From: an uncultured virus (IMG/VR IMGVR_UViG_3300026518_000010)
Taxonomy: Duplodnaviria > Heunggongvirae > Uroviricota > Caudoviricetes
Strand: one strand, 5' to 3'
Virus record (IMG/VR): IMGVR_UViG_3300026518_000010
DNA: 64,000 nucleotides
Both the position numbers and the translations under genes were made by a program. Position 1 is the first letter of the stretch. Each line of letters starts with the position of its first letter. Positions 5,508 through 55,087 of this stretch are shown one piece after another. Under the pieces are notes generated by a model that saw nothing but the letters and a program-made list of their open reading frames with translations, did no database searches and was not told where the DNA came from.

Positions 5508-5606
5508 TTTTGTCTCCTTAAAGACAGAGTAACTTTCTTGATTTTCCAACCCAAAGGCGTACTCTTTCAATACTCGTTACTCAAAATTTTATTTCTTGCA
5601 CATTAG
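5508..5606 (-). promoter_or_regulatory. Conserved structured 5' leader, copy 1 (promoter motif, double AGUA/GAA hairpin, RBS hairpin)
   Basis: Homologous to 13368-13465 and 54990-55087 with compensatory base changes. Confidence 0.8.
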
Positions 5607-5679
5607 GTATATATAAATAAAAAAATTAAGAAATTAAATTATAGGACTGATTTGAACGAAACATATAAAAGGAGTTATA

Positions 5680-6750
5680 ATGTATAAATTATTAGAATAT
5701 TTCAGCAGTTATTCTGAAAACACAATTAGATATCCTAAACACTTTCCAGACGATTTTGATTATTTAATTTCTAGATTAGCATTAAAATTTAATGGAGCGT
5801 CTGAGGGGAGTTATAATTTGGATATAAGAGTACAAAGACCTAACATATTTACATCTTTATTAAACGATATTGAACTTATATTAACAGATGATGTATTCGA
5901 AATATACGATAGTATCCTTAATGATGGAATTTATTTTGTAAACAACTATTATTTTACATCTACTAAAAATAAAGGTAAACCTTTAAAAAATATAATATTA
6001 CACAACATCGATGAGTTCTTCTTATTAGAAGAAGATACTGGCGTTAATCTTTTAGATTTTGAAGATACGTGGAGAACTTATGAAAGTATAAAAGTAATAG
6101 CTAGTGATAATACAGAACTAGTTTTTAAACATCTTTATAAAACAGAATTAGAATTTACTAGTTATATTATTTATAAAGTAGATATCGTAGCTTTAACATT
6201 ACAATATTATTATTGGATAAAAGAAGAAAAAGAAAAAAGTGTAGAAGCTGATTTAGATTCAGCATTATTTTTAAATAGAATACCTTTTAATAATCTTATT
6301 AAATCTTTTAATATAAATGCTTTAACAAATCTATTCTTAACATTTAATAATAAAAGTGATTTAAATGTTATTTATAGTAGAGTAAGCGGTAGTGTTACTA
6401 ATATAAATAAATATATTATATCAGTAGCTAAAGATTGGAAAAAGATCTTACATAAACAACGTTATAGAAGTTATTTCGATTTTACAAAACGTTTTTACCC
6501 ATACACTAAACCATTGTACGATTTAAATAAATTTATAACTATCATAAATAATCAAAATGAATGGTTATACTTTTTAGCGGAATTAACTAAATTATCTTAT
6601 TATATAGATTTTGTTAAAAACGATAATGAATTTATAAGTAAATTAAAAATAACTTTAAAAGAATTTAAAAGAAAAAATATAAGGCTTGATGAAATAAGTA
6701 ATTTTTATTTAAATAATTTAATTATGACAATAGAAGAAAAAATAAGATAA
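5680..6750 (+). CDS. Hypothetical protein, probably phiKZ-like conserved
   Basis: 356 aa, AAAGGAG RBS; WRTYESIKVI and VDIVALTLQY segments reminiscent of chimallivirus conserved proteins. Confidence 0.65.
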   Translation: MYKLLEYFSSYSENTIRYPKHFPDDFDYLISRLALKFNGASEGSYNLDIRVQRPNIFTSLLNDIELILTDDVFEIYDSILNDGIYFVNNYYFTSTKNKGKPLKNIILHNIDEFFLLEEDTGVNLLDFEDTWRTYESIKVIASDNTELVFKHLYKTELEFTSYIIYKVDIVALTLQYYYWIKEEKEKSVEADLDSALFLNRIPFNNLIKSFNINALTNLFLTFNNKSDLNVIYSRVSGSVTNINKYIISVAKDWKKILHKQRYRSYFDFTKRFYPYTKPLYDLNKFITIINNQNEWLYFLAELTKLSYYIDFVKNDNEFISKLKITLKEFKRKNIRLDEISNFYLNNLIMTIEEKIR

Positions 6751-6760
6751 GTAGGAAATC

Positions 6761-7072
6761 CTACTTATCTTTTGCTAATTTATCACTAAGATAAAATATA
6801 AACTTATCTAAACTTCTATTTAATTTTTTATAATAGTAGTATGCAGAATCATATACTGTATCAAAAATAGTATAAACTATTAAAACTAAAGCTACGAATA
6901 AATTTACTAATGGTATAAACATAGCAATTAACATAAATTTAATAGTAAACTTATCATCTTCACAAGCATACGACCTATACTGATCTTTACAATCTTTCAT
7001 CTCTACTAACTTATTTTTAATATAGTTAATTATAATAATCATAGAACCAAAATAAAGAATTAGAAAACTCAT
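6761..7072 (-). CDS. Small membrane protein
   Basis: Two hydrophobic segments; overlaps upstream stop (ATGA). Confidence 0.65.
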   Translation of the reverse strand: MSFLILYFGSMIIIINYIKNKLVEMKDCKDQYRSYACEDDKFTIKFMLIAMFIPLVNLFVALVLIVYTIFDTVYDSAYYYYKKLNRSLDKFIFYLSDKLAKDK

Positions 7073-7293
7073 TTTAAATCTCCTTTAACTAAGCTTAATA
7101 ATAAAGCAGCGATAAATAGAATACCAAAACCTAAACTTAATAAAGATACCACCATTATAGCTATAATAGTAACTATAGGCATTATTAAAACTATTAAATA
7201 ATCTATCTTATTTATAGGTTTAGTTCTGTATATTAAAATATACAGTCCTAATGAAAATATAACATAACCTACTAAAATTAATGCATATGACAT
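7069..7293 (-). CDS. Small membrane protein
   Basis: 74 aa, nearly all hydrophobic; AAGGAG RBS. Confidence 0.65.
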   Translation of the reverse strand: MSYALILVGYVIFSLGLYILIYRTKPINKIDYLIVLIMPIVTIIAIMVVSLLSLGFGILFIAALLLSLVKGDLK

Positions 7294-7535
7294 TGTTTAC
7301 TCCTTTTCTTACAATTTTCTACATATTCATTTATTAATTCTTTTTTATATGGATAATTCTCTGTTTGGAACATAAGCACATTGTAATTATTTCTTATATG
7401 TTCGCACAATTCTTCAAATGCTTTTATCTCATCTTCTGGGAAAAAATGCATAGATCCATACTTACACCTATCTTCAATTATATTTGTATATCTTCTATAC
7501 AATAAATCAAATACTTCTAATTCTAACTTAGGCAT
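7278..7535 (-). CDS. Hypothetical protein
   Basis: 85 aa, AAAGGAG RBS. Confidence 0.65.
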   Translation of the reverse strand: MPKLELEVFDLLYRRYTNIIEDRCKYGSMHFFPEDEIKAFEELCEHIRNNYNVLMFQTENYPYKKELINEYVENCKKRSKQCHMH

Positions 7536-7632
7536 TGTTTCTCCTTTATTGTTTAATTTATTCTTGCATTATAAGTATACGCAATCGTATATAATTAGAA
7601 AAAATAATTAGATGAATTTTTAAAGGATAACT

Positions 7633-8397
7633 ATGAAAAAAACATTATTGCTTATATTAACATTATTATACACAAATTTACACGCAAGGTGTAAAGTAAA
7701 TTATAAAAAGTACATACCTGTAAATGCAGTTAAATTAATTCCGTTATTACACGAAGAAAGTACTAAGATATTGCCTAATTTTAATTTTTATCCATATTTC
7801 CCTGCGCTAATAGAACATGAATCTTGTATTACTTTATGTAGTAAAAGATGTTGGAATGCTAAAAGTAGATTAAAAACATCTAGAGAAGAAGGAGCAGGAT
7901 TAGGGCAAATAACAAGAGCTTGGAGAAACGGTAAATTAAGATTTGATACTTTAGCTGTGCTTAAAAGAAAATATAGAAAACAACTACACGACTTAAACTG
8001 GAAAAACATTTATGATAAACCTAAATTACAAATAAGAGCAATGTTATTATTATGGAGAAATAATTATAAAAGATTTCCTAATGATATAAATTTTATAAAT
8101 AAACTAGCGTTTTCAGATGCTAGTTATAATCAAGGGTATTATAGAACTTATAAGGACAGACAACTATGTAAATTAAAAAACAATTGTAATCCTAAGATAT
8201 GGTTTAATAATGTAGAAAAAACCTGTACAGCTAGTAAAAGAATATTGTACGGTAATCGTTCTGCTTGTGATATAAGTAGACATCACGTTAGGGACGTTTT
8301 TGCTAGAATACCTAAATATTATTTCTTTTATTCTAAACTAGGATATACTAATATTAATGATTTAATGACTTTTTTAAAAATAAAAAATAGTGAGTAA
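7633..8397 (+). CDS. Secreted lytic transglycosylase (SLT/lysozyme-like), candidate endolysin
   Basis: Signal peptide ending LHA; IEHES catalytic Glu, GAGLGQIT, ASYNQG motifs; several Cys. Confidence 0.82.
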   Translation: MKKTLLLILTLLYTNLHARCKVNYKKYIPVNAVKLIPLLHEESTKILPNFNFYPYFPALIEHESCITLCSKRCWNAKSRLKTSREEGAGLGQITRAWRNGKLRFDTLAVLKRKYRKQLHDLNWKNIYDKPKLQIRAMLLLWRNNYKRFPNDINFINKLAFSDASYNQGYYRTYKDRQLCKLKNNCNPKIWFNNVEKTCTASKRILYGNRSACDISRHHVRDVFARIPKYYFFYSKLGYTNINDLMTFLKIKNSE

Positions 8398-8414
8398 AAT
8401 TACTCACTATTTTT
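8383..8414. terminator. Bidirectional terminator
   Basis: Inverted repeat AAAAATAGTGAGTAA/TTACTCACTATTTTT between convergent genes. Confidence 0.8.
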
Positions 8415-8424
8415 ACTTTATTTT

Positions 8425-9216
8425 TTATAAAAATGGATTAACACCCATTTGGATATATTTAGAATAACTTTTATCATCATTCATAAACATTATTTTACCC
8501 ATAACTTCTTTTAGCATAGTCATATAACTTTCATATGCATCCGAATATCCATCTACTATGTCTTTAATAACAGACAGTTCTCTACCTCCTACTATTAATC
8601 CTTTATTTAAATCAACAACTAATGTATTATAAATATAAGCTTTAGTAGCCCATACTGCCAACTCTCCAAATCTATTATAATAACTAGGATTAAGATTATT
8701 AAGGTGTTTATCGTTTTCAATCATAACTGTTAAATACCCTACTATAAGTGGTAAATTTTCATGTACTAGAATAGTATTATTTCCTATTAATTCTAAATCT
8801 GTAGTAGTAAAACCAGTTGGGGTAGACCTAGTATTGACAGCCGCTTCAGCCATCTGTACAAAATAACTATTATCACCGCTATTACCAGGGCCATACTCTA
8901 AAGAAATTTGTAATGCTGAAACTATGTTTCTACCATTTAATATTCTAGGTGGAACTTTAATAACTGTTTCTAATCTAAATTGGTCTGGAGATACAGTCAT
9001 CATCTGACAGTCTTGTAAGTTTATGCTTATCTCTTGTCCTCTAACAACATTTAAATCAGGAAGAATCTTAGCTTCTATGACGTTATCTATTATTAACTTG
9101 TCTAATGGAACTATCTCTGAAGTATAATACTGGTGTCTTCTCACAAATGCTAAATCTAATATATCTTTAGGTATAACATATTTAATATCTATTAATGCTT
9201 TAGTAATTGCATCCAT
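8425..9216 (-). CDS. phiKZ-like conserved protein, probably virion structural
   Basis: MDAITKAL..IKYVIPKDILDLAF N-terminus and ATKAYIYN motif resemble chimallivirus conserved proteins. Confidence 0.6.
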   Translation of the reverse strand: MDAITKALIDIKYVIPKDILDLAFVRRHQYYTSEIVPLDKLIIDNVIEAKILPDLNVVRGQEISINLQDCQMMTVSPDQFRLETVIKVPPRILNGRNIVSALQISLEYGPGNSGDNSYFVQMAEAAVNTRSTPTGFTTTDLELIGNNTILVHENLPLIVGYLTVMIENDKHLNNLNPSYYNRFGELAVWATKAYIYNTLVVDLNKGLIVGGRELSVIKDIVDGYSDAYESYMTMLKEVMGKIMFMNDDKSYSKYIQMGVNPFL

Positions 9217-9256
9217 TTTTTATTCCTTTATCTTTTTTAATCAAAAAAGAAAAAAA

Positions 9257-9485
9257 AAAGTGACAGGTAACGGATGCCGCCGGATAGTTTTTTGTGTTGG
9301 GTCCAACTAACAACCCTCAAATAGTGACTTTTTTATGAGAGCGCCACCGCTAACTCCCCGGACATACGAGCCCTTTCACTACGACTATGTCATCTGGTCT
9401 TCCGTCGTATCGGATACTACACCGCTTGGTGAGCGACCTACTAAACCGCTATTCCATAATCTCCTTTCGCGTACTGGTAATACGC
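9257..9485 (-). ncRNA. Candidate GC-rich structured non-coding RNA
   Basis: About 230 nt, about half G+C in an AT-rich genome; multiple stems; ends in a hairpin plus long U-tract. Confidence 0.5.
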
Positions 9486-9881
9486 TTATTTTGTTTTGTA
9501 ATATGGCAAGTTTAATTTTCTTGCCAATTTTTTACATGTATCAACGCTACCACCCGCGATACCATTCCATCTACCTTCCGGTAGATTTAAGTACCACCAC
9601 TCTTTATAAGAGTGAAATGATACTTGCCCAAAACCTCGGATATCGAAATAAATGATATCCATACCCAAACCAAAATCAACACCGTAAGAAACTCTTACAA
9701 GTGTTGTTCTTCTTGCCGCTGCTATCGCTTGCGTGATATACTTATCTTTAACGGCGTATTTTTTCGCTAGCGCTTTTCTAGCATTATTGCTTTTAGCGCT
9801 AACATATCCTTTACCAGCATCAGATGCAACCTGTGCTAGTAAAATATACTTTATACATTCTTTAAAATGTTTACTAGCCAT
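9486..9881 (-). CDS. Basic hypothetical protein with IYFD...GQVSFH motif
   Basis: 131 aa, AAAGGAGG RBS, GC-richer than neighbours. Confidence 0.7.
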   Translation of the reverse strand: MASKHFKECIKYILLAQVASDAGKGYVSAKSNNARKALAKKYAVKDKYITQAIAAARRTTLVRVSYGVDFGLGMDIIYFDIRGFGQVSFHSYKEWWYLNLPEGRWNGIAGGSVDTCKKLARKLNLPYYKTK

Positions 9882-10017
9882 GTTGCCTCCTTTGCTAGTT
9901 TTTTTTTAATTAATTATTTAACTATATTTACAAAATAAACATAATTAAATAATCTGTTCTAATTTAGGAATATATAAATAAAAAAATTTATAAAAAAAGA
10001 AAAAAAATAAGACAGAA

Positions 10018-10446
10018 TTACTTCTGTCTTATTACGTATTTATCATATCCGTTAGAGTATACTCTATAATCAACATTGTTATTTCTATCTTTAATTCCTG
10101 TATCGTTAGAAACATTATATGGGTTAGAGATATCAATAATAATTCTTATACCACTAATTACAGTATTACCTATTTCTTTATAATCTAAAGTTACTTTAGA
10201 TACATAGGTATTTAAATAAACATTCATTCTTTTGCCCACCAATATTTTAACTGATGGGAAAATATAATCTTTAAATATAAATGGTAAATTACGTTTTAAA
10301 GAATATAAGCCAAATGCATTTACAAATTTTGTACCAGATTCATCTGCTATAAACAAATCTAATATTCCTCTATTTAAATCATCTACTATTTCTCTATCTA
10401 CTTTTTTAAATGGTTTAATAACACTATCATTAATTATAAATTTCAT
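10018..10446 (-). CDS. Hypothetical protein
   Basis: 142 aa, coupled to upstream ORF. Confidence 0.65.
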   Translation of the reverse strand: MKFIINDSVIKPFKKVDREIVDDLNRGILDLFIADESGTKFVNAFGLYSLKRNLPFIFKDYIFPSVKILVGKRMNVYLNTYVSKVTLDYKEIGNTVISGIRIIIDISNPYNVSNDTGIKDRNNNVDYRVYSNGYDKYVIRQK

Positions 10447-10790
10447 TCTTCAATCCTTTTTATTATATTATTTTTTTCTAATTCATTTAGTATGTTTTCT
10501 ATAAATTTTACAACTTCGTCAGATGGGTAAGATAAGTCGGTTCTGAATGTATCTAAAACTATATCATATACACCTTCTTCTTCACCAAGTACTGCAAGTA
10601 CTCCTTTCCAAGTATTAGGTTGTCCAAAAACTAGACAACCTACATTTTTAATTCCATATTCATTATTGAATATTTCAAAATACTCTTTCGGTAGTTTTCT
10701 TTTTGCTTCTTCTCTCATAGTTAATCTTAAACTACCTGCATTCATATCCGCTCTAACTGTCGCTATTATTTTTTTATTAAAGTATAACAT
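10443..10790 (-). CDS. Hypothetical protein
   Basis: 115 aa, AAGGAG RBS. Confidence 0.7.
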   Translation of the reverse strand: MLYFNKKIIATVRADMNAGSLRLTMREEAKRKLPKEYFEIFNNEYGIKNVGCLVFGQPNTWKGVLAVLGEEEGVYDIVLDTFRTDLSYPSDEVVKFIENILNELEKNNIIKRIEE

Positions 10791-10799
10791 CTTTTCTCC

Positions 10800-11840
10800 T
10801 TATTTTTGTTTCATTATTGCTTTAAATATTCTATCAGCATTAGTATATAATGCCTCTATTTCATCTGGTACATTAAATATAGTACCGTCTTTTAAATTAA
10901 GTAACCATTTCTTAGCTCTGTATAAATCATCTTCATTTATAAGATCTTTGAAATTCTTAAGTTTAAAATCATTTTTATGTACATCTATTAGAGGTATAAA
11001 TGAACCTATATAAGATAAAATATCTCTATCATCAGTTCCTACTTCTGTTAATGTAACACCTTTCATAATTCTTCTTAGTTTTTGAACTAGAAGATCAGTA
11101 TACATCGGGTCTTTTAAAACAAATCTTCTATTAAGCTTATTATAAGCTATGGCGATAGATTTTAATTCCGGAATATCTGTATAAGCTTTTGTATATCTAG
11201 CACTATTAAGTGCTTTTCTACCTTTATAGTCTACAAATATTAATCCATACTCATATTTAAATTTTATGTATGGATTATCTTCCCACATATCTCTTAAATT
11301 ATTAATACTATTTAACATAAGATATAACAACATATCTTCCTTCATATTTTTAGTATCTTTCTTAGAAAATGCCTTAATTTTGGGAAGCATATAACCGGTA
11401 ATAACGGTCTGTTCTTTCCCATATTTATTAAGTCTATTTAACTTAATATTAAATTTTTCTTCTGGAGAAAATTTAATATTCTCCATTTTTTCTAAACTAG
11501 TCCCTGTAAAAATACAAGGATTTTCATTTGACCCATAACTTCTACATTGTTCAGGTCTATATTCATAAATTCTACATTTATGATTTTCTTCATCGTAGAA
11601 TATACAAGTATTAGTTAATAATACTTTATCATTTTTTATATCGTTTCTTTTAGTTATAATGTATTTATTATATTCTTTTAAGAAAGATACTTTTACCTCA
11701 TTATTAACTTTACCTAAGTAATCTGATTTATAATTAAAATAAGCCAATTCATCTTCTCTCCACATAGGAGTCATTTCGCAGCAACTTAAATCCAGTTTAC
11801 CGCATAATTCGCATTTTTCTTTACACATTTCTTTACACAT
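10800..11840 (-). CDS. YkgJ/FliB-like CxxCxxCC cysteine-cluster protein
   Basis: CELCGKLDLSCC and CIFYD....CRIYEYRPEQCRSY motifs; start moved to ATG 11840 behind AAAGGAG. Confidence 0.78.
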   Translation of the reverse strand: MCKEMCKEKCELCGKLDLSCCEMTPMWREDELAYFNYKSDYLGKVNNEVKVSFLKEYNKYIITKRNDIKNDKVLLTNTCIFYDEENHKCRIYEYRPEQCRSYGSNENPCIFTGTSLEKMENIKFSPEEKFNIKLNRLNKYGKEQTVITGYMLPKIKAFSKKDTKNMKEDMLLYLMLNSINNLRDMWEDNPYIKFKYEYGLIFVDYKGRKALNSARYTKAYTDIPELKSIAIAYNKLNRRFVLKDPMYTDLLVQKLRRIMKGVTLTEVGTDDRDILSYIGSFIPLIDVHKNDFKLKNFKDLINEDDLYRAKKWLLNLKDGTIFNVPDEIEALYTNADRIFKAIMKQK

Positions 11841-11925
11841 AAGTGCTCCTTTAATTTGTTTATTCTTGCACTTTAGAAATATGATATTATAAATTATTAA
11901 AAACAAAAAATAACATAGAGAACCG

Positions 11926-12282
11926 TTAACGGCTCCCTATGTACGATATAACAATTAACCCAAACATTACACTATAACCAACTATTCTTAAACTCCAAGC
12001 TAGCATATATGTAGCAATTGCTTTAGGATCTCTTTTAATATTTTCTAAAAGTTTAGGATCATCTAAAAATTTAAAATATCTATCTGTAAAGAAATCTGTA
12101 ATTATCTCAACAACAGCCAAACCTAATGCAAACATTAACACTACTTGTAAACTTAAAAGTAATCCTGCCCCATACGGTAAATTACTTAAAATATTTGTAT
12201 CTGGGTCCATAGCTAACGTATACACAATAAACAATAATAAAATTATGAAAAATATCACAATTCTTTTAATACTTGTTTTCAT
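11926..12282 (-). CDS. Three-TM membrane protein, possible holin
   Basis: Three hydrophobic helices in 118 aa. Confidence 0.55.
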   Translation of the reverse strand: MKTSIKRIVIFFIILLLFIVYTLAMDPDTNILSNLPYGAGLLLSLQVVLMFALGLAVVEIITDFFTDRYFKFLDDPKLLENIKRDPKAIATYMLAWSLRIVGYSVMFGLIVISYIGSR

Positions 12283-12318
12283 TTTTAATTCCTTTCAATA
12301 TTATTTTCAATTTATCTT

Positions 12319-12534
12319 TTATAATAAATTAAGTTCATCTTTATTATTCTCTTTAAAATTAATTTCTTTTTTAAGAATATCTACTTCAGTTTCTAAAGTA
12401 CTAACTTTATTTTTTAAAGAATTAACTTCTTTTATTAATAACTCTATACGTTCATTATCTTTAACATTGTCTTCGACAGTTTTCTTAATATAAGTAGATT
12501 GTACCTCGTCTGTAAGTTTTTTATGTAAAGCCAT
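12319..12534 (-). CDS. Small coiled-coil protein
   Basis: Likely start MALHKK behind AAGGA; heptad-like pattern. Confidence 0.6.
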   Translation of the reverse strand: MALHKKLTDEVQSTYIKKTVEDNVKDNERIELLIKEVNSLKNKVSTLETEVDILKKEINFKENNKDELNLL

Positions 12535-12576
12535 TGTATATCCTTTATAAAAAAAAAATAACACTCAAACAAGGAT

Positions 12577-13125
12577 TTAATTATCCTTTAAATAATGTCT
12601 AAGCGCTACAATTTTATTTAAGATACGCTTAGCGTATCTCCAATTGGGTCTAGTCCCACCGTTATAATGAGCCCAAACCTCTTTCCAAGTTTTATACTTG
12701 GATTTTAATTTTTCAAGTTTAGCTATGGCGTACATTATACTATAATCGTCATTACACGCCAATTTAGTCGCTAGCCTCGATTTTAGATAACGGTTGTGTC
12801 TATTATAACCGTTATCTATCATATACCATTTCAAGTTTATCCCCATTACACCATAATCTCCAGTATCTGGGATAACTTTGTACACACCAAACATTGACTC
12901 TTCCCACGCTATTGCGGCGCAGGTTTTAGAAAGATCGTATCTAGCGCATCTTGCGTAGATGTATTGCAATCTTTCTCTTTGTACCGGCGTTAACCTTTCT
13001 AATTGTTTTCTATACTCTACATATAGACTTCTGTCTACCTTTACGATAGCTTTACTACCATAATCTCTGTACCCATTCCCCATTAAAAAAGATAAAAGGA
13101 AGAAGAAAGTTGTTATAACTCTCAT
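12577..13125 (-). CDS. Secreted lytic transglycosylase (SLT family)
   Basis: Hydrophobic N-terminus; AIAWEES, DYGVMGIN, HYNGG motifs. Confidence 0.8.
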   Translation of the reverse strand: MRVITTFFFLLSFLMGNGYRDYGSKAIVKVDRSLYVEYRKQLERLTPVQRERLQYIYARCARYDLSKTCAAIAWEESMFGVYKVIPDTGDYGVMGINLKWYMIDNGYNRHNRYLKSRLATKLACNDDYSIMYAIAKLEKLKSKYKTWKEVWAHYNGGTRPNWRYAKRILNKIVALRHYLKDN

Positions 13126-13367
13126 TTTACACCTCCTTTTTTAACAAGTATTGTTCTGAATACTTGTTCTAATTTTTCTTTAATTTTATCACAAGTCTCA
13201 CCTGCGATATTTGCAGGATAAATATATATTTTAATTATATTTTTATATACAGCGTATTTATCTATTTCTAGACCTAAGTCCGTGTAGCTAACAGTATTTA
13301 AAATACTATTTATTTCGCCAGGTGTTAATTTAATTCCTCTTCTGTCTATTCTAATCACGCATCTCAT
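13122..13367 (-). CDS. Hypothetical protein
   Basis: 81 aa, directly behind structured leader copy 2. Confidence 0.7.
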   Translation of the reverse strand: MRCVIRIDRRGIKLTPGEINSILNTVSYTDLGLEIDKYAVYKNIIKIYIYPANIAGETCDKIKEKLEQVFRTILVKKGGVK

Positions 13368-13465
13368 TTTGTCTCCTTAAAGACTGAATAGCGTTCATAA
13401 TTTTCCAACCGTAAAGGCGTACTCTGTTACTACTAACTATTTGAAATTATTTTTTTGCATTTTAG
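13368..13465 (-). promoter_or_regulatory. Conserved structured 5' leader, copy 2
   Basis: Near-identical to 54990-55087 and homologous to 5508-5606. Confidence 0.8.
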
Positions 13466-13515
13466 ACATATGTAATTATAAAAAAATATAAATCAATACT
13501 AACAGGAATATCCTA

Positions 13516-13755
13516 TTAGTATTTTGCGTCTTCTTTATTATCTAATGGTTTCACTGTTATTTTAAGATTATCTGTTTCAAGATTATTTAGTATATGGTAT
13601 ATAACGTCTTGTGTGTTTTTAAATTTATATTTTGGAACATAATAAGCTGGTCCTAATATTCCTGGATAATACATTTTAAAAAGTACTTCACTATTTTCAA
13701 AATATCTTTCAAATTCTATAAAAACTACTTTATCGTTTCTTTCATATTTTTGCAT
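13516..13755 (-). CDS. Hypothetical protein
   Basis: Likely start MQKYER behind AAAGGAG. Confidence 0.6.
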   Translation of the reverse strand: MQKYERNDKVVFIEFERYFENSEVLFKMYYPGILGPAYYVPKYKFKNTQDVIYHILNNLETDNLKITVKPLDNKEDAKY

Positions 13756-15691: not shown

Positions 15692-15694
15692 TTT

Positions 15695-16354: not shown

Positions 16355-16358
16355 TTTT

Positions 16359-16862: not shown

Positions 16863-16888
16863 TGTTAACCCTTTCTTAGTTAATTATT

Positions 16889-23845: not shown

Positions 23846-24096
23846 TTCGTACTCCTTAATGTAGTTCCTATTGTAACATTAGGGATAATAAAACATTTAT
23901 TACATATATAGTAAGTGTCATTATTGTCAATATGTTTATTACTATACATATTTAATAAATTATAATTACATATCCTCTTCCATCCTATTATAGAATGTAT
24001 ATCTTTGTTTATATTATATTTACTTAATAATCTATTACATTTAATGTCGGCATTAGAATAAACTAAGAACAACATAGTCATAATTATTTTTTTCAT
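23842..24096 (-). CDS. Small secreted Cys-containing protein
   Basis: Signal peptide ending SNA; four Cys; ATGA-coupled to neighbours on both sides. Confidence 0.7.
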   Translation of the reverse strand: MKKIIMTMLFLVYSNADIKCNRLLSKYNINKDIHSIIGWKRICNYNLLNMYSNKHIDNNDTYYICNKCFIIPNVTIGTTLRSTK

Positions 24097-25436
24097 TTAG
24101 ACTCCTTCACACTGTTTACTAACAAGTCTATTATAAATACAGTACCTTTATTAGATGTAGTGTAAACATATATATCACCACCAGCATCTCTCAAGATTTC
24201 TCTAGTTATATAAAGACCAAATCCTCTATATGAATTTAATACCTCATCTTTCTTATTTTTATCTTTATTAAAAAATTTCATTATCTTAGTTTTAAAAGAC
24301 CCATAATTATTTACTTCATCAATAGCCTTCATATTCTCTTGAACTTCTTCTTTTGTACTATAACCTAATTGAAATATTTTATCATAATCGCCATCTTCTA
24401 CATTTTTAATACCGCTACCATTATCTGTTAATATTAATGATAATATTTTACTATTAGTATCGTATCTAGAATCGACTACTATAGTAGTAGCGCCTGCTTC
24501 TAATGAGTTTTTTATTTGGTTATTTAATATATTTAATAACGTTCCGTTATCTAACTTACTAGCTTTTACTGATTTTAATAATTCTTGATTTTTAATTTCA
24601 TAATCAAAAGTAAATGAAAAATGTGATAACTTAAGTGATTTTATAGTTGTTAATATTATATCGTATAAATCTTTACTATTAACATTATATTTGGTTTTCT
24701 TATTTGTAGACATTTGTTCTAAAACAGATTCTAGTCTTTCAATATTGCTATCTAATAATGGAAAATAATCTGTATATTCTTGTGTTAATAATCTAAATTT
24801 ACAAGTATAACAATTTGAATTTTTACTAATATTTGCCATTGATTTTACAGAAGGAGTTGTTTCTTTTAATTGCATTATAGATGTTTTAATAACTTCCACA
24901 GGAACTGTCATTTCGTGATACGCAGATTCTGCTGTTATATTTTGTAGCCTACCTTCTAACTTTGATTTATTAATAAACATTTCTAGATCTTTATTTTTCT
25001 CTTCTAAAAACTTACTTTTAAAATAATAGAAATGATAACCTAATAATATTAATAAAGCTATTACTATATCTTCTCTAATAGAAAATATATAAAAATTATC
25101 TAATTTAGGAACTATGTGTATATTTGTATCTTGTATAGTATATCTGTTATATATATACCTTTCTATTATAGATAAATTATTTATATTCATACTTGTTTCT
25201 TTTAGTACGTCATTTACAGGGCTATATAATATTTTATTTTTAGAAATATATTCACAATTTACGATATTGCATATTAGATTTAAATCAGGCCCATTAGTTT
25301 TAACAATAGACTCTACTCTATTATTATTATAAGTAAAAAAAGATTTAAAATTTATATATGTAACTACTACATTAACGATAATAATCAATAATAGTATATT
25401 AATCAATTCCTTTAAATAAGTACTTTTAAATTTCAT
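24093..25436 (-). CDS. Membrane-bound sensor histidine kinase
   Basis: Two TM helices around a periplasmic loop; H-box ESAYHEMTVPV, N-box NNQIKNSLEA, G1 DNGSGI, F-box IFQLGYSTK, G2 GFGLYI. Confidence 0.93.
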   Translation of the reverse strand: MKFKSTYLKELINILLLIIIVNVVVTYINFKSFFTYNNNRVESIVKTNGPDLNLICNIVNCEYISKNKILYSPVNDVLKETSMNINNLSIIERYIYNRYTIQDTNIHIVPKLDNFYIFSIREDIVIALLILLGYHFYYFKSKFLEEKNKDLEMFINKSKLEGRLQNITAESAYHEMTVPVEVIKTSIMQLKETTPSVKSMANISKNSNCYTCKFRLLTQEYTDYFPLLDSNIERLESVLEQMSTNKKTKYNVNSKDLYDIILTTIKSLKLSHFSFTFDYEIKNQELLKSVKASKLDNGTLLNILNNQIKNSLEAGATTIVVDSRYDTNSKILSLILTDNGSGIKNVEDGDYDKIFQLGYSTKEEVQENMKAIDEVNNYGSFKTKIMKFFNKDKNKKDEVLNSYRGFGLYITREILRDAGGDIYVYTTSNKGTVFIIDLLVNSVKESK

Positions 25437-43877: not shown

Positions 43878-44060
43878 AATTTCTCCTTAATATCGGTTTA
43901 TAGGCTATTCAATCAATGACTTGTACTACTATTTTAGTTAAATCAATAATTTATACCTTATCACCAAAATGGTACTTAGTTATAAAAGAAAGAAAAAATA
44001 TTTATAATAATTGAGTATATGAAAAAGATATGACGGATTATAAATTAAAAAAGGAAAATT

Positions 44061-45437
44061 ATGAGTAATATAAAAAAAGAAGCAAAATTAGTAACTTATC
44101 TTTCAGAAAAAGAAGTTGGGGAAGACATCCACATTGTAAGAGAAAAAGTAATTGATGGAGATGATTTCCATTATGATATTAAAATTATAAAAGACTTTAA
44201 AAGACCATTCTGGATTACTAAACCTTTCTTTAGAAACCATAAAGATAAAAAAGAAGCTGAAGATATGGAAAATACAGATATGTTTAAAGCTACTCAAAGC
44301 ACATTAACTAAAGAAGCCGCTATTAGATTAGGAGAAACATTTGCAGCTATGAAAAATCCAGGTATAATAAAAAATAGTCCTTATATATATGGTCTGGATG
44401 TAGATGCAAGAACTATACTTAAATATAAATATCTTAAAAAATACGATACTATTACACCTAATAGATATGCAGCACTGGATATTGAAAAGAATATATTAAC
44501 AGATGAAATAATAGTAATAAGTTTAGCTAGCGATTATGGAACATATGTAGGGATACTAAGTAAACTAATATGGAAAGAAAAAGAACCATTAACAAAACTA
44601 CAACAAATGTATGAAGAATATATACCAGATGTAGAAGTAAAAAGAAAATCTCCAATAGAATTTAAAATATTTCCTGATGAATTAGGTATGTTAAAATGGA
44701 TATTTAAAAAAGCCAATGATTTAAATGTAGACTTAATAGGTGTATGGAATATTAAATACGATATACCTGAAATAATGGATACATTAAGTAAATATGGAGT
44801 TAAGATAGAAGATATAGCTCATTATGATAAAATACCATCTAAGTATAAATATTTTAAATTTATAGAGGGACAGTCAGTTAAGAAAACTGCTAGTGGTAAA
44901 GCTGTACCTAGAGCTCCTGAAGAAATATGGAATATAGTTAAAAGTTCTACTAATTATTATTTAATAGATGCTATGTCTACTCATAGGTATGTTAGAACTG
45001 GTGGAGCTATGGTAAGTGGCGGTTACAGTTTAGATAACATATTAAAAGAAGAAGGAGTAGCACAAAAATTAAAGTTTGATACAGGTGGAGTTAACCAAGG
45101 AGCAGAATGGCATATTTATATGGTTAAAAACAAACCATTAGAATATATCATATATAATGTTTGGGATACTATGTCTATGATAGAATTAGATAGAAAAACA
45201 GAAGATATGAGAATATCTTTAGATCTATTATTAGGCGTTAGTCATTATGATGTATTTAATAGTGGACCTAAAAGAATAATAGATGCGTTATTCTTCTTCT
45301 ATTTAAAACATAAAAAAGTGTTAGGTACAAAACCTACTAAAATGGATGATGATAAAGTATTAGGTTTAGATAACTGGATTATAACATTACCAGGTTATAG
45401 AATTATGGATAATGGATTACCATTATTATACGAATAA
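44061..45437 (+). CDS. Family B DNA polymerase N-terminal part, 3'-5' exonuclease (phiKZ gp82-like)
   Basis: ExoI ALDIE, ExoII WNIKYD, IDAM, YSLDNIL, ExoIII YNVWD. Confidence 0.85.
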   Translation: MSNIKKEAKLVTYLSEKEVGEDIHIVREKVIDGDDFHYDIKIIKDFKRPFWITKPFFRNHKDKKEAEDMENTDMFKATQSTLTKEAAIRLGETFAAMKNPGIIKNSPYIYGLDVDARTILKYKYLKKYDTITPNRYAALDIEKNILTDEIIVISLASDYGTYVGILSKLIWKEKEPLTKLQQMYEEYIPDVEVKRKSPIEFKIFPDELGMLKWIFKKANDLNVDLIGVWNIKYDIPEIMDTLSKYGVKIEDIAHYDKIPSKYKYFKFIEGQSVKKTASGKAVPRAPEEIWNIVKSSTNYYLIDAMSTHRYVRTGGAMVSGGYSLDNILKEEGVAQKLKFDTGGVNQGAEWHIYMVKNKPLEYIIYNVWDTMSMIELDRKTEDMRISLDLLLGVSHYDVFNSGPKRIIDALFFFYLKHKKVLGTKPTKMDDDKVLGLDNWIITLPGYRIMDNGLPLLYE

Positions 45438-45451
45438 AAAAAGGAGTAAAT

Positions 45452-45715
45452 ATGAAAAAACCAATAATAAGAACAAACATAAGAACACACGTAGCAGATA
45501 GTGATGCAGTAAGTTCATATCCTAGCGATATAGCTGCTGCTAATGTTAGTAAAGATACTACTCATAGAGAAATAATGGCTGTAGAAGGTAAGACTAAAAA
45601 TAAATTTAAAATAGAAAATATTAATTTAATGTTTGGACCAATTAATGCTATACAATATTGTGTAGAAATGTTTAATATGCCTACATTAGAAGAATTAGAA
45701 TCTGTTATAAAATAA
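45452..45715 (+). CDS. Family B DNA polymerase fragment carrying motif A
   Basis: VADSDAVSSYPS...ANVSKDT equals PolB DxxSxYPS; own AAGGAG RBS. Confidence 0.75.
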   Translation: MKKPIIRTNIRTHVADSDAVSSYPSDIAAANVSKDTTHREIMAVEGKTKNKFKIENINLMFGPINAIQYCVEMFNMPTLEELESVIK

Positions 45716-45741
45716 AAAAAAATAGTGTAGTAAAGACTACG

Positions 45742-46554
45742 CTATTTATTACATGTTTTTATTATGTATTTAACATAACTAAATATATCTTTATTACATT
45801 CGTCAACATTAGATATTTTTTTAAACTTGTAATTCAAGTATTTTACTCTATTACCTGGAATATCAATTTTATTATATAAAACAATATCTCCTATATCATT
45901 ATCTAGTGTATCTTTAGATAAATCAAAAGGACTAAGTTCTAATGTTACTGGGTCTAACTCGTAATAATAATCCACGGCATTAATACTCTTTTTTAAAGTT
46001 AAAATAGGCCCAACTTCTTTATAAGGTTTATTATAAACATCATATTTAACTTTAACTTTTGAAACAATATCAATTATTTTAAACCTTTCGTTATTGTCTA
46101 ATTCTAGTTTTATATTTCTACTATAATACTTATTATAAAAATATAAACAAGTTTTTATCTTATTTACTACATTAGAACCCATATCCTCTTCACTTGCTAC
46201 TGAAAATGTACGCTCACCAGATCTATCACTAAAATACTCATCTACTATAGTTGGGTAATGCTTAATAATTTTATTAAAACCTAATAATTTTTTTAATCTT
46301 TTCGCTCCATTTGGATTTTTAACAAAATAACTTTTTACATAGTCACACCTAGCACAAAATCCATTATTTATATCATAAGTACTCAATGTCGTGTAAGGCA
46401 TGTCTATTTTTATAACGAATACGTTAGGTATTTTTTTACATTCTATGGCTTCTTCTAATTCGTCAATTATAGTCTCTCCTATTTTTGTAAACCTAACAGC
46501 TTTTTTAAAATTAATGATGTCGTTAATTTTAAATTTTAATAAATTAATTTCCAT
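45742..46554 (-). CDS. Hypothetical protein
   Basis: 270 aa, CxxC; preceded by CTAAAATGC (46580-46588). Confidence 0.7.
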   Translation of the reverse strand: MEINLLKFKINDIINFKKAVRFTKIGETIIDELEEAIECKKIPNVFVIKIDMPYTTLSTYDINNGFCARCDYVKSYFVKNPNGAKRLKKLLGFNKIIKHYPTIVDEYFSDRSGERTFSVASEEDMGSNVVNKIKTCLYFYNKYYSRNIKLELDNNERFKIIDIVSKVKVKYDVYNKPYKEVGPILTLKKSINAVDYYYELDPVTLELSPFDLSKDTLDNDIGDIVLYNKIDIPGNRVKYLNYKFKKISNVDECNKDIFSYVKYIIKTCNK

Positions 46555-46645
46555 TGCCTTCTCCTTTAATTTGTTTTTTGCATTTTAGAAATATAATATT
46601 ATATAAAATTAAAAAATAAAAGTAAGTAGAATATCTACTTACTTT

Positions 46646-47365: not shown

Positions 47366-47434
47366 TACTTCTCCTTAGTGTTAATTTTTAAGCATAAAAT
47401 AAATAACAAATAAAAAAAGAAACAAGAGAAGGGC

Positions 47435-48025: not shown

Positions 48026-48103
48026 ATTTGCTCCTTTAGTTTTTTAATGAATTTTTTATTCTATTTTAGTAACATATAAATAAAAAAAGATAAAAGACAA
48101 GGG

Positions 48104-48703: not shown

Positions 48704-48765
48704 TTTTTCTCCTTTAATTGTTCTGCATTTTAGAAATATAACTATAATTATTAATGGAAATATTT

Positions 48766-51133: not shown

Positions 51134-51211
51134 TTTTTCCTCCAGTATTTTTTATAATAGAATTAATTCATTTGATGGCAATGAATACTAATTAACATTA
51201 AGGAGAAAAAG

Positions 51212-51802: not shown

Positions 51803-53324
51803 AAAATTATTTAAAGTAGATGAAAAAATAAAAGAACCTATTGGTAAACTATTATTAGATTACCTTAAACAATACTCAGATAACAATAACAAAAATATCA
51901 ACGATTTAACTTTAGAAGAATTGGAAAAAGAAATTGTTCTTTTTCCATCTGTATTAAATAGTAAACTTGCTGAGTATATTAAAAACTTTGATAATCTATC
52001 ACCAGAAGAAGTAGATGAATTACCTGATGATGTTAGAATGCTTTTATTAAAACTTGGAGATGTTATAAGCGCTATAGATAACCCATCTAGTACTTATCTA
52101 TTTGAAAAAGATATTACTAAAAAACCACTGCATAACGAATCAGTAGTTAACGATATAAAATATAACGATAAAGATTATGGTATCAGTTACCCTACAATTA
52201 AAAAAGTAAAGTCAGACGCTTCTTTCCTAATGGAATTACAAGAAGGAGTTGGTTTAGGTAAAATGACTAAAATAATCTTATGGAATAGTGGACTATGGTT
52301 AACTATAAGACCACCTCAAAATGAAGATCTTATTAATCTTTATACTAAACTTACACAAGAAATTGATTATATTTCTGAGAATACAACTATGTATGGGTTC
52401 AGTAATATTAGTACAGTATTCTATAAAGTAGTATGGGAATATGTTGTTAATCATTTAGTAGATAGTAGTTTAAATGTAAATCCTAAATACTTAGCTAGAT
52501 ATATTTCAATTCTAGATATGGATACAATTTTATTAGGAGTATTATCACAATTATTTTATAATGGATTTAATACAACTCTATTATGTAAAAATAACTATGA
52601 GTTAGATGAAAATGGTAAACCTAAATGTAATTACAGTTATAAAATAAACTTAGACTTACCTAAATTACTTTGGACTGATACAAGTAGATTAAATACAGAA
52701 ATGATGTCTATCATAAGTAAGAGAGGACCAAGAAGTCAGAAAATTGAAGATATAAAAGAATACCAAAAACATTTACAACCAAATGATATTAAAACTATAA
52801 TTACTCTTAATAACGGTAAAGAGTTAGAATTAGAATTAGGTATTCCTAATTTAGAAACTAGTTTTGATAACTCTGAAATTTTTATATTAGAAATAAACAA
52901 ATTCATAAATAAAAGTTTATCTAGTATAAAAACTGATGAAGATACGGAAACTATTAAAGACAATCTAAAAGGTATGGCTGTTAAAACATTGTTTTTAGGA
53001 ATCTATAGTCAATATGTCAAATCTATGACACTAGGAACATTTAAAACAGATAAACAAGCTACTATTTTAGAAGCATTGAAAACATTAAGTACTAATGCTA
53101 CTGATGTTAATAACATTATTAATAAAATCAATAACTTCATTACTAATGCTAGTATCACAACGATCGCTATTCCAGATTTTGTATGTCCTGTTTGTGGAGC
53201 TTCGCAGGCAACAAATGAAACAGCGTTTGAAGATCTAGTACCTGTTAATATGGTTAACTATTTTTTTACTTTATCGAAGCTCCGCTTTATGAAACAATTA
53301 CTAGAAAAAGCAGAGACAAAATAG
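51780..53324 (+). CDS. Tail/baseplate-hub assembly chaperone-like protein (T4 gp26-like)
   Basis: LWNSGLWLTIRPP, two Cys pairs incl. CPVCG, C-terminal VNYFF; start at ATG 51780 behind AAGGAG. Confidence 0.6.
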   Translation: MENLQTNKKLFKVDEKIKEPIGKLLLDYLKQYSDNNNKNINDLTLEELEKEIVLFPSVLNSKLAEYIKNFDNLSPEEVDELPDDVRMLLLKLGDVISAIDNPSSTYLFEKDITKKPLHNESVVNDIKYNDKDYGISYPTIKKVKSDASFLMELQEGVGLGKMTKIILWNSGLWLTIRPPQNEDLINLYTKLTQEIDYISENTTMYGFSNISTVFYKVVWEYVVNHLVDSSLNVNPKYLARYISILDMDTILLGVLSQLFYNGFNTTLLCKNNYELDENGKPKCNYSYKINLDLPKLLWTDTSRLNTEMMSIISKRGPRSQKIEDIKEYQKHLQPNDIKTIITLNNGKELELELGIPNLETSFDNSEIFILEINKFINKSLSSIKTDEDTETIKDNLKGMAVKTLFLGIYSQYVKSMTLGTFKTDKQATILEALKTLSTNATDVNNIINKINNFITNASITTIAIPDFVCPVCGASQATNETAFEDLVPVNMVNYFFTLSKLRFMKQLLEKAETK

Positions 53325-53866
53325 ATAAAAAGATAGATAACATTTTTAATAATTATTATGTTAGATTAAATAATGAAATTAAAAATAGAAAACTATCTTT
53401 TTATAAAGAATATATGTTCAAAGATTATGAGTCTCTATTCGATGAAATGTCAGACGGATTAGCAAAGTCTTCAAACTTTGCTAATATAAATACAGAATTA
53501 CAAGCAGAGCAATATAGACGTAAGTTTACTGAATTCCTTATGCTAGGTAAAAAATTAAACCCTGTAACAGACAAAGATGTCTATATGGGTTTATTTGATG
53601 TAATGCATACTGGTAATAAAAGTGACAGTTTAACCAATAGTAAATATCCTAAATTAGCTTTAAACTTTATTATAGGTGAGTTAAGTAAATATTTAGGAAT
53701 GAGTTATAAAGACTTCTTAAAATTAACTATAGAGGAAACTGATATACTTTTAGATATAGTTACATTAAAACAAGAAAGTATAGAAACAGTAAATGAAGAA
53801 TTATATAAGGATTTAAATAAAGAAAAAAAATCGACCGATGATCAGTTTATGTTTGGAGGTATTTAA
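53258..53866 (+). CDS. -1 frame extension of the chaperone (ORF track start 53414)
   Basis: Frame open from 53258; ATG 53414 lacks an RBS; LSKYLGMSYKDFLKLT resembles chaperone extension domains. Confidence 0.6.
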   Translation, partial: LFFYFIEAPLYETITRKSRDKIDKKIDNIFNNYYVRLNNEIKNRKLSFYKEYMFKDYESLFDEMSDGLAKSSNFANINTELQAEQYRRKFTEFLMLGKKLNPVTDKDVYMGLFDVMHTGNKSDSLTNSKYPKLALNFIIGELSKYLGMSYKDFLKLTIEETDILLDIVTLKQESIETVNEELYKDLNKEKKSTDDQFMFGGI

Positions 53867-54573
53867 TGGAAAATAATATAAACGTATTTAAAGATATTTA
53901 TTTAGACCTAGACGCTATCTTAGATACGCGTCTTGGTGTTCTTTATACTCTTGACCAAGGTCTATATGAATATTATCAAAATGAAGGAAAAAAAGAATAT
54001 AAGAATCGTCTCATAGATGAATTTGATTATATACCTAATAAAGTATTTAGGTATTACTATAATCGAAGAAATAAATTTATTTTAAAACATAGTAAATTAA
54101 CACCATTATTAGCAATACTTAATATAACTATTGACGATATGGTTAGTAAAAGAGTTATGGCTGATAAAAGTATTAAAAAACTTAAAATAGATGTAAACTA
54201 TTACCCCTATAAATTAGACGAGGATGAGATATTAAAACTAAAAGCTAGCGTATATAGCCAAATAAGTGCTAAAGAATTTGTTATTATAGAATTTATAAGT
54301 ATTCCTTATGAAGATTTAACATCTAGTTATTGTAATAATTATGGAGTTATGGCTATGTATGATGGTAACGATTGGTTAGACAAAAGAGGGTTATTGAAAG
54401 ATATTAAAATAACTTTACCATCTACTCATTTACTATTACCTTATTTATTAACAAAACCAATAGTATTTAAATCAGGAGAGACTCTAGAAAAATACTTTAG
54501 TAATATTAAAGAATTATTTAGTTACTATATAAAACTTGAATATAATAGGACAGAATTATTTTCAGCAGTATAA
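53866..54573 (+). CDS. phiKZ-like conserved protein with N-terminal DxD (HAD-like) motif
   Basis: IYLDLDAILDTRLG; VNYYPYKL; GGAGG RBS. Confidence 0.6.
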   Translation: MENNINVFKDIYLDLDAILDTRLGVLYTLDQGLYEYYQNEGKKEYKNRLIDEFDYIPNKVFRYYYNRRNKFILKHSKLTPLLAILNITIDDMVSKRVMADKSIKKLKIDVNYYPYKLDEDEILKLKASVYSQISAKEFVIIEFISIPYEDLTSSYCNNYGVMAMYDGNDWLDKRGLLKDIKITLPSTHLLLPYLLTKPIVFKSGETLEKYFSNIKELFSYYIKLEYNRTELFSAV

Positions 54574-54599
54574 AAAAAAATAAAACTAAAGGAGAGAGG

Positions 54600-54989
54600 T
54601 TAGAGATAAACTCTAACCTTTTTCCAATTCTCCCAAGTCTTATCCCTATTAAATAACCAAGCTGTTTCTTTCACATCTTCACGTGAAAGTTCGTCCACAG
54701 TAAGTAATAAGTATTTGCTACTTACTCCTAACTCAACTGCTAGTCTTAGAGCATTAGCAAACTTTTTAGCTTGTCTAACCTCTTTAACTTTAGCTTCTTC
54801 AAAGTCATAAATGACTTTTTCAATTAACCCTACTGCTAACGATAAGTATTTAAACTCATCATCTGTTAAACTATAGTATTCACAAATATCTTTAAAATAA
54901 CATAAATAAATACTGCTATTAGTTAAACTACCATCAATTACATCACCGCTTTTATTTAGTGTTACATTTCTAAATTTTACTTTTGACAT
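54600..54989 (-). CDS. Hypothetical protein
   Basis: 129 aa behind structured leader copy 3. Confidence 0.7.
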   Translation of the reverse strand: MSKVKFRNVTLNKSGDVIDGSLTNSSIYLCYFKDICEYYSLTDDEFKYLSLAVGLIEKVIYDFEEAKVKEVRQAKKFANALRLAVELGVSSKYLLLTVDELSREDVKETAWLFNRDKTWENWKKVRVYL

Positions 54990-55087
54990 TTTTGTCTCCT
55001 TAAAGACTGAATAGTGTTCATAATTTTCCTACTTTAAAAGCGTACTCTGTTACTACTAACTATTCAAAATTATTTTTTACATTTTAG
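54990..55087 (-). promoter_or_regulatory. Conserved structured 5' leader, copy 3
   Basis: Homologous to copies at 5.5 and 13.4 kb. Confidence 0.8.

Follow-up and report, generated by a model that had tools for sequence, protein, structure and literature searches.

A unit of approximately 135 nucleotides (nt), which we describe here as a putative structured leader of messenger RNAs (mRNAs), is repeated at three sites on the minus strand of a 64,000-nt stretch of DNA from an uncultured virus of the Caudoviricetes (IMG/VR record IMGVR_UViG_3300026518_000010; this whole stretch is called the window). Alignment of the copies revealed a common order: an AT-rich stretch ending in CTAA(A/T)(A/G)TG(C/T)AA, 11–13 A/U-rich nt, a hairpin of about 61 nt (the rod), a single nucleotide and GTCTTTAAGGAGACAAAA(A)ATG. 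An earlier note on this DNA, made from the letters alone, had placed a leader at three positions on the minus strand; the copies are present at those places, and the spans given begin with the promoter-like motif and stop one base short of the ATG. The parts of the three copies, with bit scores from a covariance model built on them, are as follows.

5596–5606, minus strand: copy 1, promoter-like motif CTAATGTGCAA, an exact match to CTAAWRTGYAA
5527–5582, minus strand: copy 1, leader hairpin composed of helix P1, internal loop G-AGUA/GAA-A, helix P2, internal loop AAG-AGUA/GAA-AA, helix P3 and loop UUUG (105.2 bits)
5512–5525, minus strand: copy 1, invariant Shine–Dalgarno hairpin GUCUU-UAAG-GAGAC, with the ATG at 5505–5507
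13455–13465, minus strand: copy 2, promoter-like motif CTAAAATGCAA (motif match)
13386–13442, minus strand: copy 2, leader hairpin of the same architecture, with A–C as the outermost P1 pair (100.6 bits)
13371–13384, minus strand: copy 2, Shine–Dalgarno hairpin, with the ATG at 13365–13367
55077–55087, minus strand: copy 3, promoter-like motif CTAAAATGTAA (motif match)
55009–55065, minus strand: copy 3, leader hairpin (108.8 bits)
54994–55007, minus strand: copy 3, Shine–Dalgarno hairpin, with the ATG at 54987–54989
55123–55158, minus strand: perfect hairpin followed by a T run, a likely terminator by its sequence, just 3′ of the upstream gene of 557 amino acids (aa)

Because the terminator-like hairpin stands before it, copy 3 would head its own transcription unit. 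The 14-mer that carries the Shine–Dalgarno sequence, GTCTTTAAGGAGAC, has exactly three exact matches in the window; at up to two mismatches a fourth match appears (two mismatches, plus strand), when 0.27 would be expected and none of 100 shuffled sequences reached four. The core AGAGTACGC...GGAAAA occurs three times against an expectation of 0.02. Run over the whole window with filters off, the covariance model scored the three copies at 100.6–108.8 bits and the next match at 15.6 bits, and a fourth copy, in a related IMG/VR contig, G002, reached 103.4 bits.

The rod has a single architecture in all copies. P1 has seven pairs and is followed by an internal loop in which N-AGUA lies opposite GAA-N; P2 has four pairs and is followed by a second internal loop, with NAG-AGUA opposite GAA-AA; and P3 consists of a C–G pair, a further three pairs and a single bulged nucleotide, closed by an apical loop of 4–5 nt (UUUG, UUUAC or UUUAA). 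Across the three window copies, 59 of 60 pair cells hold standard pairs and six pairs are changed on both sides, a result that none of 500 shuffles equalled; sliding the 3′ partners by 1–3 columns left 32–53% of the cells paired. With the G002 copy added, standard pairs occupy 78 of 80 cells and five pairs are double-changed (3–4 of 500 shuffles were as high; 30–52% paired in the slid controls), and RNAalifold, to which no structure was given, recovered 19 of the same 20 pairs. The conserved, covarying RNA structure that the earlier note had seen in the 5′ leader is thus borne out, including the pairing of each stem it named, with one reservation: the outermost P1 pair of copy 2 is an A–C mismatch. 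The other exception is an A–C in P2 of the G002 copy, where copies 2 and 3 have G–U. Eleven cells in the four copies are G–U pairs, which would be A–C on the opposite strand, indicating that the fold belongs to the sense strand, that is, to the mRNA.

Stems and loops differ in how freely their letters vary. In the four-copy alignment 14 of 30 stem columns are variable, compared with 4 of 22 internal-loop and bulge columns and 2 of 22 columns in the linker, Shine–Dalgarno hairpin, spacer and ATG (stems versus remaining columns, Fisher p 0.003). The core AGUA/GAA columns do not vary at all (0 of 14), as had been claimed from three copies. On these alignments the pattern of constraint is the one expected for an RNA in which helices need only to pair and in which the loops and the ribosome-binding hairpin are read by sequence. 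Both internal loops place 5′-AGUA-3′ opposite 5′-GAA-3′ in all four copies, between helices that are backed by covariation, a combination that matches the sequence consensus of the bulged-G (sarcin–ricin, loop E) module, the fold of which is marked by an S-turn of the backbone, a G–U–A base triple and cross-strand stacking of A residues. Such modules are often associated with protein binding, according to passages of PMC7247131. Directly downstream, every copy also has the predicted hairpin containing the Shine–Dalgarno sequence, in which GGAG pairs with a U-rich strand (−2.6 to −4.1 kcal/mol) and is mostly paired in the model; as this hairpin is invariant, covariation is silent on it.

The position of the rod in the transcript follows from the motif upstream of it. 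The degenerate motif CTAAWRTGYAA has seven exact matches in the window against 1.03 expected (0 of 100 shuffles as high); all seven are on the minus strand, which is the coding strand there, and six lie 19–88 nt before a start codon. Inspection of the 130 nt upstream of every window gene showed that CTAAAATGCAA or a close variant also stands 19–28 nt before the ATG of plain minus-strand genes, with no more than a short A-rich leader and AAAGGAGAA in between. They comprise an RNA polymerase piece, the gene for the nuclear-shell protein chimallin and the genes that start at 7535, 11840, 46554, 48703 and 57874. Comparison sites without the rod include the following.

1333–1343, minus strand: promoter motif of an RNA polymerase beta-prime-like piece, whose leader is short and plain
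4419–4430, minus strand: one-base-longer motif variant CTAAGATGCCAA before chimallin, with a 32-nt plain leader and no structure
11866–11876, minus strand: promoter motif of the gene that starts at 11840, again with a leader that is short and plain
46578–46588, minus strand: promoter motif of the 270-aa gene at 45742–46554, which likewise has a short plain leader
48723–48733 and 57897–57907, minus strand: motif matches before the start codons of non-structural genes

The motif, together with an upstream aATTTCyAA box, is common to the window, to G002 and to a second related contig, G001. In the window it precedes the RNA polymerase piece and other non-structural genes, and among the upstream regions of window genes it was not found in that of the major capsid gene. 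Every jumbo phage that encodes RNA polymerases is stated in passages of PMC7598289 to possess a particular conserved motif, AT-rich and some 10 nt long, near position −10 of its early promoters and over-represented ahead of early operons, and AR9 provides an example of such an early-promoter motif (passages of PMC5312081). By analogy, aATTTCyAA ... CTAAAATGCAA is probably a lineage-specific promoter, probably early and read by the virion RNA polymerase. No more than 28 nt separate the motif from the ATG of plain genes, so that transcription should start within about 12 nt after it; since P1 begins 11–13 nt after the motif in the leader copies, the rod would be transcribed and would lie at the 5′ end or a few nt from it. 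The gap between rod and ATG is only 18 nt, leaving no room for another promoter of the same type. We consider it very likely, on the sequence, that the rod belongs to a transcribed, structured leader.

Profile searches identify the genome in which the leader occurs. A chimallin gene at 2596–4386 was recognized by its PHROG profile (E 4.7e-23), and further PHROG profiles in the window matched a phiKZ-type major head protein, pieces of split multisubunit RNA polymerases, ribonucleotide reductase, DNA polymerase and a DnaB-like helicase; an Rpb1 domain was found in one open frame at the start of the window. The capsid protein shares 23–28% identity with those of phiKZ-like jumbo phages, and the G+C content is 26%. 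From the profiles, the Rpb1 domain, the capsid identity and the low G+C content together, the window is identified as a section of the genome of a nucleus-forming (Chimalliviridae-like) jumbo phage of the phiKZ-like type, AT-rich and uncultivated. A search for relatives in IMG/VR with the capsid returned G001 alone, once as a single protein and once as a two-sequence alignment. This 180-kb contig (66% complete according to its record) is syntenic with both the window and G002, shares roughly 25–75% protein identity with them and contains homologs of 37 window open reading frames (ORFs). G002 and the window have only promoter plus leader in common and no coding sequence at all, from which we infer that G002 comes from elsewhere in the same genome or in one closely similar to it.

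Window DNA is present in six public sequencing runs from three studies, all of them DNA runs and most labelled as hydrothermal vent metagenome. Comparison of contigs from four runs with positions 5400–13600 placed none of the differences listed (40 of 263) in the leaders of copies 1 and 2. In run X5, a contig of low depth is missing a single base at 5507, within the stretch of A that precedes the copy 1 ATG. The contig of run X2 that spans copy 2 has its sole other letter and both of its gaps outside the leader, which is too little to count as evidence either way. A contig of run X3 shares the sequence upstream of the copy 1 motif (5596) and continues after the motif with a different sequence that contains a perfect 9-pair hairpin, which hints at further leader variants in related strains.

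The genes directly behind the three window copies have been described as unrelated, and they are: one encodes a MYG1-like protein and the remainder are ORFs of no known family.

4584–5507, minus strand: behind copy 1, a 307-aa MYG1/UPF0160-like protein (Pfam PF03690, E 1.6e-17)
13122–13367, minus strand: behind copy 2, an 81-aa ORF of no known family, with no G001 homolog
54600–54989, minus strand: behind copy 3, a 129-aa ORF of no known family, with no homolog in G001 or G002

The 81-aa ORF is the first of a gene run that continues with an SLT transglycosylase gene (12577–13125), the G001 ortholog of which carries the promoter and a short plain leader. The G002 copy heads a 157-aa ORF, likewise of no known family; for neither the 129-aa nor the 157-aa protein did the ESM Atlas return a useful lead. 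Synteny with G001 places these genes as additions. The MYG1-like gene lies between the copy 1 leader and the chimallin gene, and gene and leader together are inserted between chimallin and a phrog_3938 gene, which are direct divergent neighbours in G001. In G002 a 677-nt stretch made up of promoter, leader and 157-aa ORF, on the opposite strand, separates two genes whose G001 counterparts lie 36 nt from each other. All four first ORFs behind a leader lack a homolog at the syntenic place in G001, the weak exception being a 26%-identity match to the MYG1-like protein elsewhere in that contig. Judged by this synteny, the leader-bearing first genes are lineage-specific insertions relative to G001. 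Conserved genes, such as chimallin, carry the motif with a short plain leader and no rod. The MYG1/UPF0160 family is a DHH-type putative exonuclease family; its member here stands directly upstream of chimallin, and the family is not known to us from phages.

Homology between the copies spans the region from the promoter to the ATG and ends there. Taken with the accessory genes behind it, this suggests a portable promoter–leader cassette, a reading that we regard as probable. The earlier note had likened such a cassette to the PeSL elements of T4-type phages; the presence of a promoter motif in the repeat and of lineage-specific genes behind it lends real weight to the cassette idea, and the likeness to PeSL is conceptual only. 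In passages of PMC2839356, PeSL cassettes likewise consist of a repeated early-type promoter, a stem–loop, a Shine–Dalgarno sequence and a start codon before non-conserved ORFs, and their copies, like those here, are alike enough to recombine. Their stem–loops are described there as G/C-rich terminators of upstream transcription that can stand upstream of or within a sigma-70-type promoter or immediately ahead of its transcription start. In contrast, the structure in the window lies downstream of a phage-specific promoter motif, is predicted to be transcribed, lacks a U tract, is followed directly by the ribosome-binding site and combines covarying stems with conserved bulged-G loops. The motif here does not fit the sigma-70 consensus with 17-nt spacing, and sigma-70-type sites are not enriched at copy 1.

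In the sister phage G001 the place of this leader is taken by another one. Three copies of a different, G+C-rich rod leader of approximately 117 nt lie between the same promoter motif and the Shine–Dalgarno sequence, at the following positions.

3094–3246 of G001: long rod leader behind the promoter motif
124306–124460 of G001: long rod leader behind the promoter motif
1–133 of G001 (contig start): long rod leader behind the promoter motif

The two rods that were folded reach −55.5 and −60.7 kcal/mol (z −6.2 and −7.8). Their stems covary, P1 being CCUCCCUGUC/GACAGGGAGG in one copy and CCUCUCUACC/GGUAGAGAGG in the other, and the rods carry AAGUAC...GUGGAA at the base of P1. The ORFs behind them are 255, 168 and 136 aa long, and neither the window nor G002 contains a homolog of these; two of the copies are identical up to the Shine–Dalgarno sequence and then continue into different ORFs. 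Two G001 stretches covering two of the three rod copies gave no Rfam match at gathering score. The window leader itself was not found in G001, where its covariance model reached at best 14.6 bits and a descriptor scan returned nothing. The two classes thus share the promoter, the position, the number of three copies, covarying stems and lineage-specific ORFs, whereas the G001 rod is longer (~117 nt), G+C-rich, far more stable and devoid of the tandem AGUA/GAA. They are clearly positional equivalents. G001 also contains three identical 70-nt units on the plus strand (113422, 121987 and 126166), each made of promoter, short leader and start codon, which suggests either repeated paralogous genes or a further shuffling cassette.

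Compared with known bulged-G sites, the window leader has the same AGUA/GAA between Watson–Crick helices in four of four copies as do the modules of ribosomal RNA (rRNA) and of candidate ribosomal-protein leaders, and differs from them in carrying two modules in tandem, four pairs apart, in a phage mRNA leader. The sarcin–ricin loop of 23S rRNA has the universal sequence AGUACGAGAGGACC, in which a GAGA tetraloop is closed by a C–G pair next to the bulged-G module. The inner loop of the leader has the same C–G pair and the same AGUAC...GGAA flanks, so that the resemblance pointed out by the earlier note holds for the flanks. It stops at the tetraloop: AGUAC is followed here by a 3-pair helix and a U-rich loop of 4–5 nt (UUUG, UUUAC, UUUAA) before GGAA, and since GAGA is absent, the leader is not a strict mimic of the sarcin–ricin loop. 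The 5′ stabilizer hairpins and RNase III sites of phage early mRNAs (T7, SP82) and of bacterial mRNAs (ompA, aprE) resemble the window leader in being conserved, 5′-proximal hairpins before a strong ribosome-binding site, repeated in several transcripts. We know of no element of the T7, SP82, ompA or aprE type that is built from tandem bulged-G modules.

The structured leader appears to be previously undescribed. Rfam release 15 (4227 models) gave no match at gathering score anywhere in the window; at E ≤ 10, copies 1 and 3 yielded chance-level matches only, the best of which (20 bits against a threshold of 74) lay on the upstream terminator hairpin, and the terminator hairpin before copy 3 gave spurious microRNA-type alignments. 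These results agree with the proposal that no described Rfam family covers the leader. A search of phage genomes, which the earlier note had called for, produced one more copy, that in G002. The initial patterns allowed a gap of 6–9 nt in the P3 region, which fits copy 1; copies 2 and 3 and the G002 copy have 10 nt. The IMG/VR pattern AGAGTACGCN{6,9}GGAAAA returned 120 stretches that were rejected as chance matches in coding DNA, and a further 6–9-nt pattern, which fits the copy 1 spacing only, gave no match in IMG/VR. The same gap in metagenome contigs returned 66 stretches, none at E ≤ 0.01 (best, 19.1 bits), a search that is uninformative for three of the four spacings. Corrected patterns in IMG/VR returned two, two and three stretches, one of which was real in each case and was the same G002 copy. 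A pattern scan of genome contigs from 185,579 species gave 14 stretches, none of which matched the model, and blastn against GenBank phages gave no significant match. The tandem pattern occurred in 1 of 401 genomes of one bacterial phylum (picked through a chance match), against three reversed-control matches; no copy of the leader was found in that phylum, and the result carries little weight. A search of the open-access literature found no paper describing such a leader, which is not proof of absence. Three other identities were considered and rejected: a conserved upstream ORF (an ATG occurs in P2′ only in copies 2 and 3), a terminator (the U tract is absent) and a miniature inverted-repeat transposable element or insertion sequence (the hairpin arms are the only terminal repeats).

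These observations can be combined into a tentative mechanism. Transcription would start at or just after the phage promoter motif, probably early in infection, and the RNA would fold within a few nt of its 5′ end into three short helices joined by the two bulged-G AGUA/GAA modules, followed directly by the weak, invariant hairpin that would half-bury the Shine–Dalgarno sequence. The two modules could form a docking surface for a phage or host protein, the binding of which might set the stability of the mRNA and/or the start of translation through the adjacent hairpin, and unrelated, lineage-specific accessory genes would in this way come under one common control. As the whole 135-nt unit is repeated, it would also provide homologous sequence through which the ORFs downstream could be moved or exchanged. 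The repeats, the fold with its compensatory changes, the promoter motif and the accessory genes are the demonstrated part of this scheme; the transcription start, the temporal class, the binding of a protein and an effect on stability or translation are the inferred part. Taken as a whole, the proposal of a portable cassette with an RNA that works post-transcriptionally, probably by way of a bound protein, on stability and/or translation is in our view evenly balanced. Control by a protein bound to the rod, taken by itself, we put at somewhat below even. A more specific version is possible but rather doubtful: the tandem bulged-G rod may be the operator of a phage post-transcriptional regulon, with a dedicated phage protein or a captured host ribosomal or RNA-binding protein docking on the S-turn modules, and with interchangeable leader classes in sister phages.

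Several points weigh against this scheme. The folding energies of single sequences are modest (z −2.3, −0.65 and −1.3), and because they are weak, the case for structure rests on covariation and not on energy; the energy model counts bulged-G loops as purely destabilizing. In the same model the fold melts above about 60 °C, and the runs are mostly labelled as hydrothermal vent metagenome. The covariation comes from four copies in one lineage, of which copies 2 and 3 and that of G002 are close, so that the double changes represent few events, and the shuffle control ignores relatedness, such that related sequences without structure can exceed it. What keeps the Shine–Dalgarno hairpin invariant could have nothing to do with the rod. 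No RNA run carrying the sequence was found among the six runs listed, all of which are DNA, and searches of the window proteins with PHROG and Pfam-type profiles recognized no RNA-binding protein. Finally, the window and G002 are fragments and G001 is incomplete, so that 'no homolog' means none in the available sequence.

The rod might act without any specific partner. Hairpins near the 5′ end protect bacterial mRNAs from 5′-end-dependent decay, and a passive stabilizer or translation enhancer of this kind would fit the start of P1 11–13 nt after the motif, which would leave a very short single-stranded tail. The different and much more stable rod found at the same place behind the same promoter in G001 suggests that any stable 5′ hairpin may serve, and the 5′-terminal stem–loops of ompA, aprE and SP82 are known stabilizers. 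Passive stabilization, however, gives no reason for 14 of 14 AGUA/GAA core positions to stay constant when the stems drift, and the rod is weak by the energy model; we give this explanation a minor but real chance. Less probable still is a processing site at which an RNase III-type nuclease would create a defined, stable 5′ end before the ribosome-binding site. The several copies of a conserved, imperfect rod in intergenic leaders, its length of about 26 layers if both modules stack (an estimate from the structure), the rods of about 40 pairs in G001 and the precedents of the T7 and SP82 early mRNAs would fit such a site. Yet the window rod contains 15 Watson–Crick or wobble pairs in helices of seven, four and four pairs, which are short for the RNase III class, and no gene for an RNase III-type nuclease was recognized in the window. 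About equally improbable is that the unit serves mainly as a DNA-level recombination module, promoter plus ribosome-binding site, that shuffles ORFs while the RNA fold is incidental or a mere insulator. Homology that ends at the ATG, the lineage-specific ORFs behind the leaders and the two G001 copies that diverge only after the Shine–Dalgarno sequence all accord with it, and passages of PMC2839356 and PMC4122927 on the PeSL cassettes of T4-type phages provide a precedent for shuffling. Plain genes already have promoter and ribosome-binding site alone as a module, however, and the extra 61 nt need a reason of their own; the compensatory changes, like the loop cores that do not vary, suggest that the RNA itself is under selection.

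Two further explanations we consider very improbable. A riboswitch or RNA thermometer would open the ribosome-binding site in response to a small molecule bound in the internal loops or to temperature acting on the pairing of GGAG. GGAG is paired with a U-rich strand in a weak hairpin in all copies, which resembles fourU-type thermometers, and the vent label suggests steep temperature gradients. Features of riboswitches are wanting, however: the genes behind the leader are unrelated, with no shared metabolic pathway or transport theme, the leader is a single rod and not a multi-helix junction, alternative pairing between the rod and the Shine–Dalgarno sequence is not predicted in three of the four copies, and no Rfam riboswitch matched. 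Alternatively, the rod could modify the phage RNA polymerase after initiation, as a cis-acting antiterminator of the put type; its position directly behind the phage promoter in several copies resembles that of the put sites of HK022, and copy 2 heads a long gene run. Behind copy 3 and behind the G002 copy, however, there is just one short ORF, which leaves no space for terminators farther on, and long conserved operons have the same promoter and no rod.

Gene control after transcription has hardly been studied in nucleus-forming jumbo phages. The mRNAs of these phages must leave the protein shell to be translated in the cytoplasm; we know of no cis-acting RNA signal for their exit or translation, and a literature search on such signals gave no phage paper among the 12 listed. 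The leader described here is compact and, at ~80 nt, small enough for direct tests; it contains two modules of a type that usually binds protein, lies behind a recognizable phage promoter and precedes unrelated accessory genes. Found in a rare vent jumbo phage, and with covariation support that is good though thin, it is a small candidate for post-transcriptional control in this group. The lineage would appear to equip newly acquired ORFs with ready-made expression signals, in parallel with PeSL shuffling but by means of a transcribed, structured leader. If the rod were indeed an operator, the 5′ leaders of sister phages would be exchangeable modules behind one promoter, together forming a system to serve newly acquired genes, and a regulon would decide when and where the mRNAs of plug-in accessory genes are translated or destroyed.

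Some further genes of the window were noted. DNA polymerase (phrog_3011) is encoded in two adjacent plus-strand ORFs, 44061–45437 (458 aa) and 45452–45715 (87 aa), which cover positions 9–478 and 482–562 of the profile; the polymerase is also split in G001, so that the split is probably natural. A 447-aa protein at 24093–25436 (minus strand) has a histidine-kinase-type ATPase domain (HATPase_c), and an 85-aa ORF at 7278–7535 (minus strand) gives a weak, below-threshold match (E 0.006) to a histidine-kinase domain known from conflict contexts.

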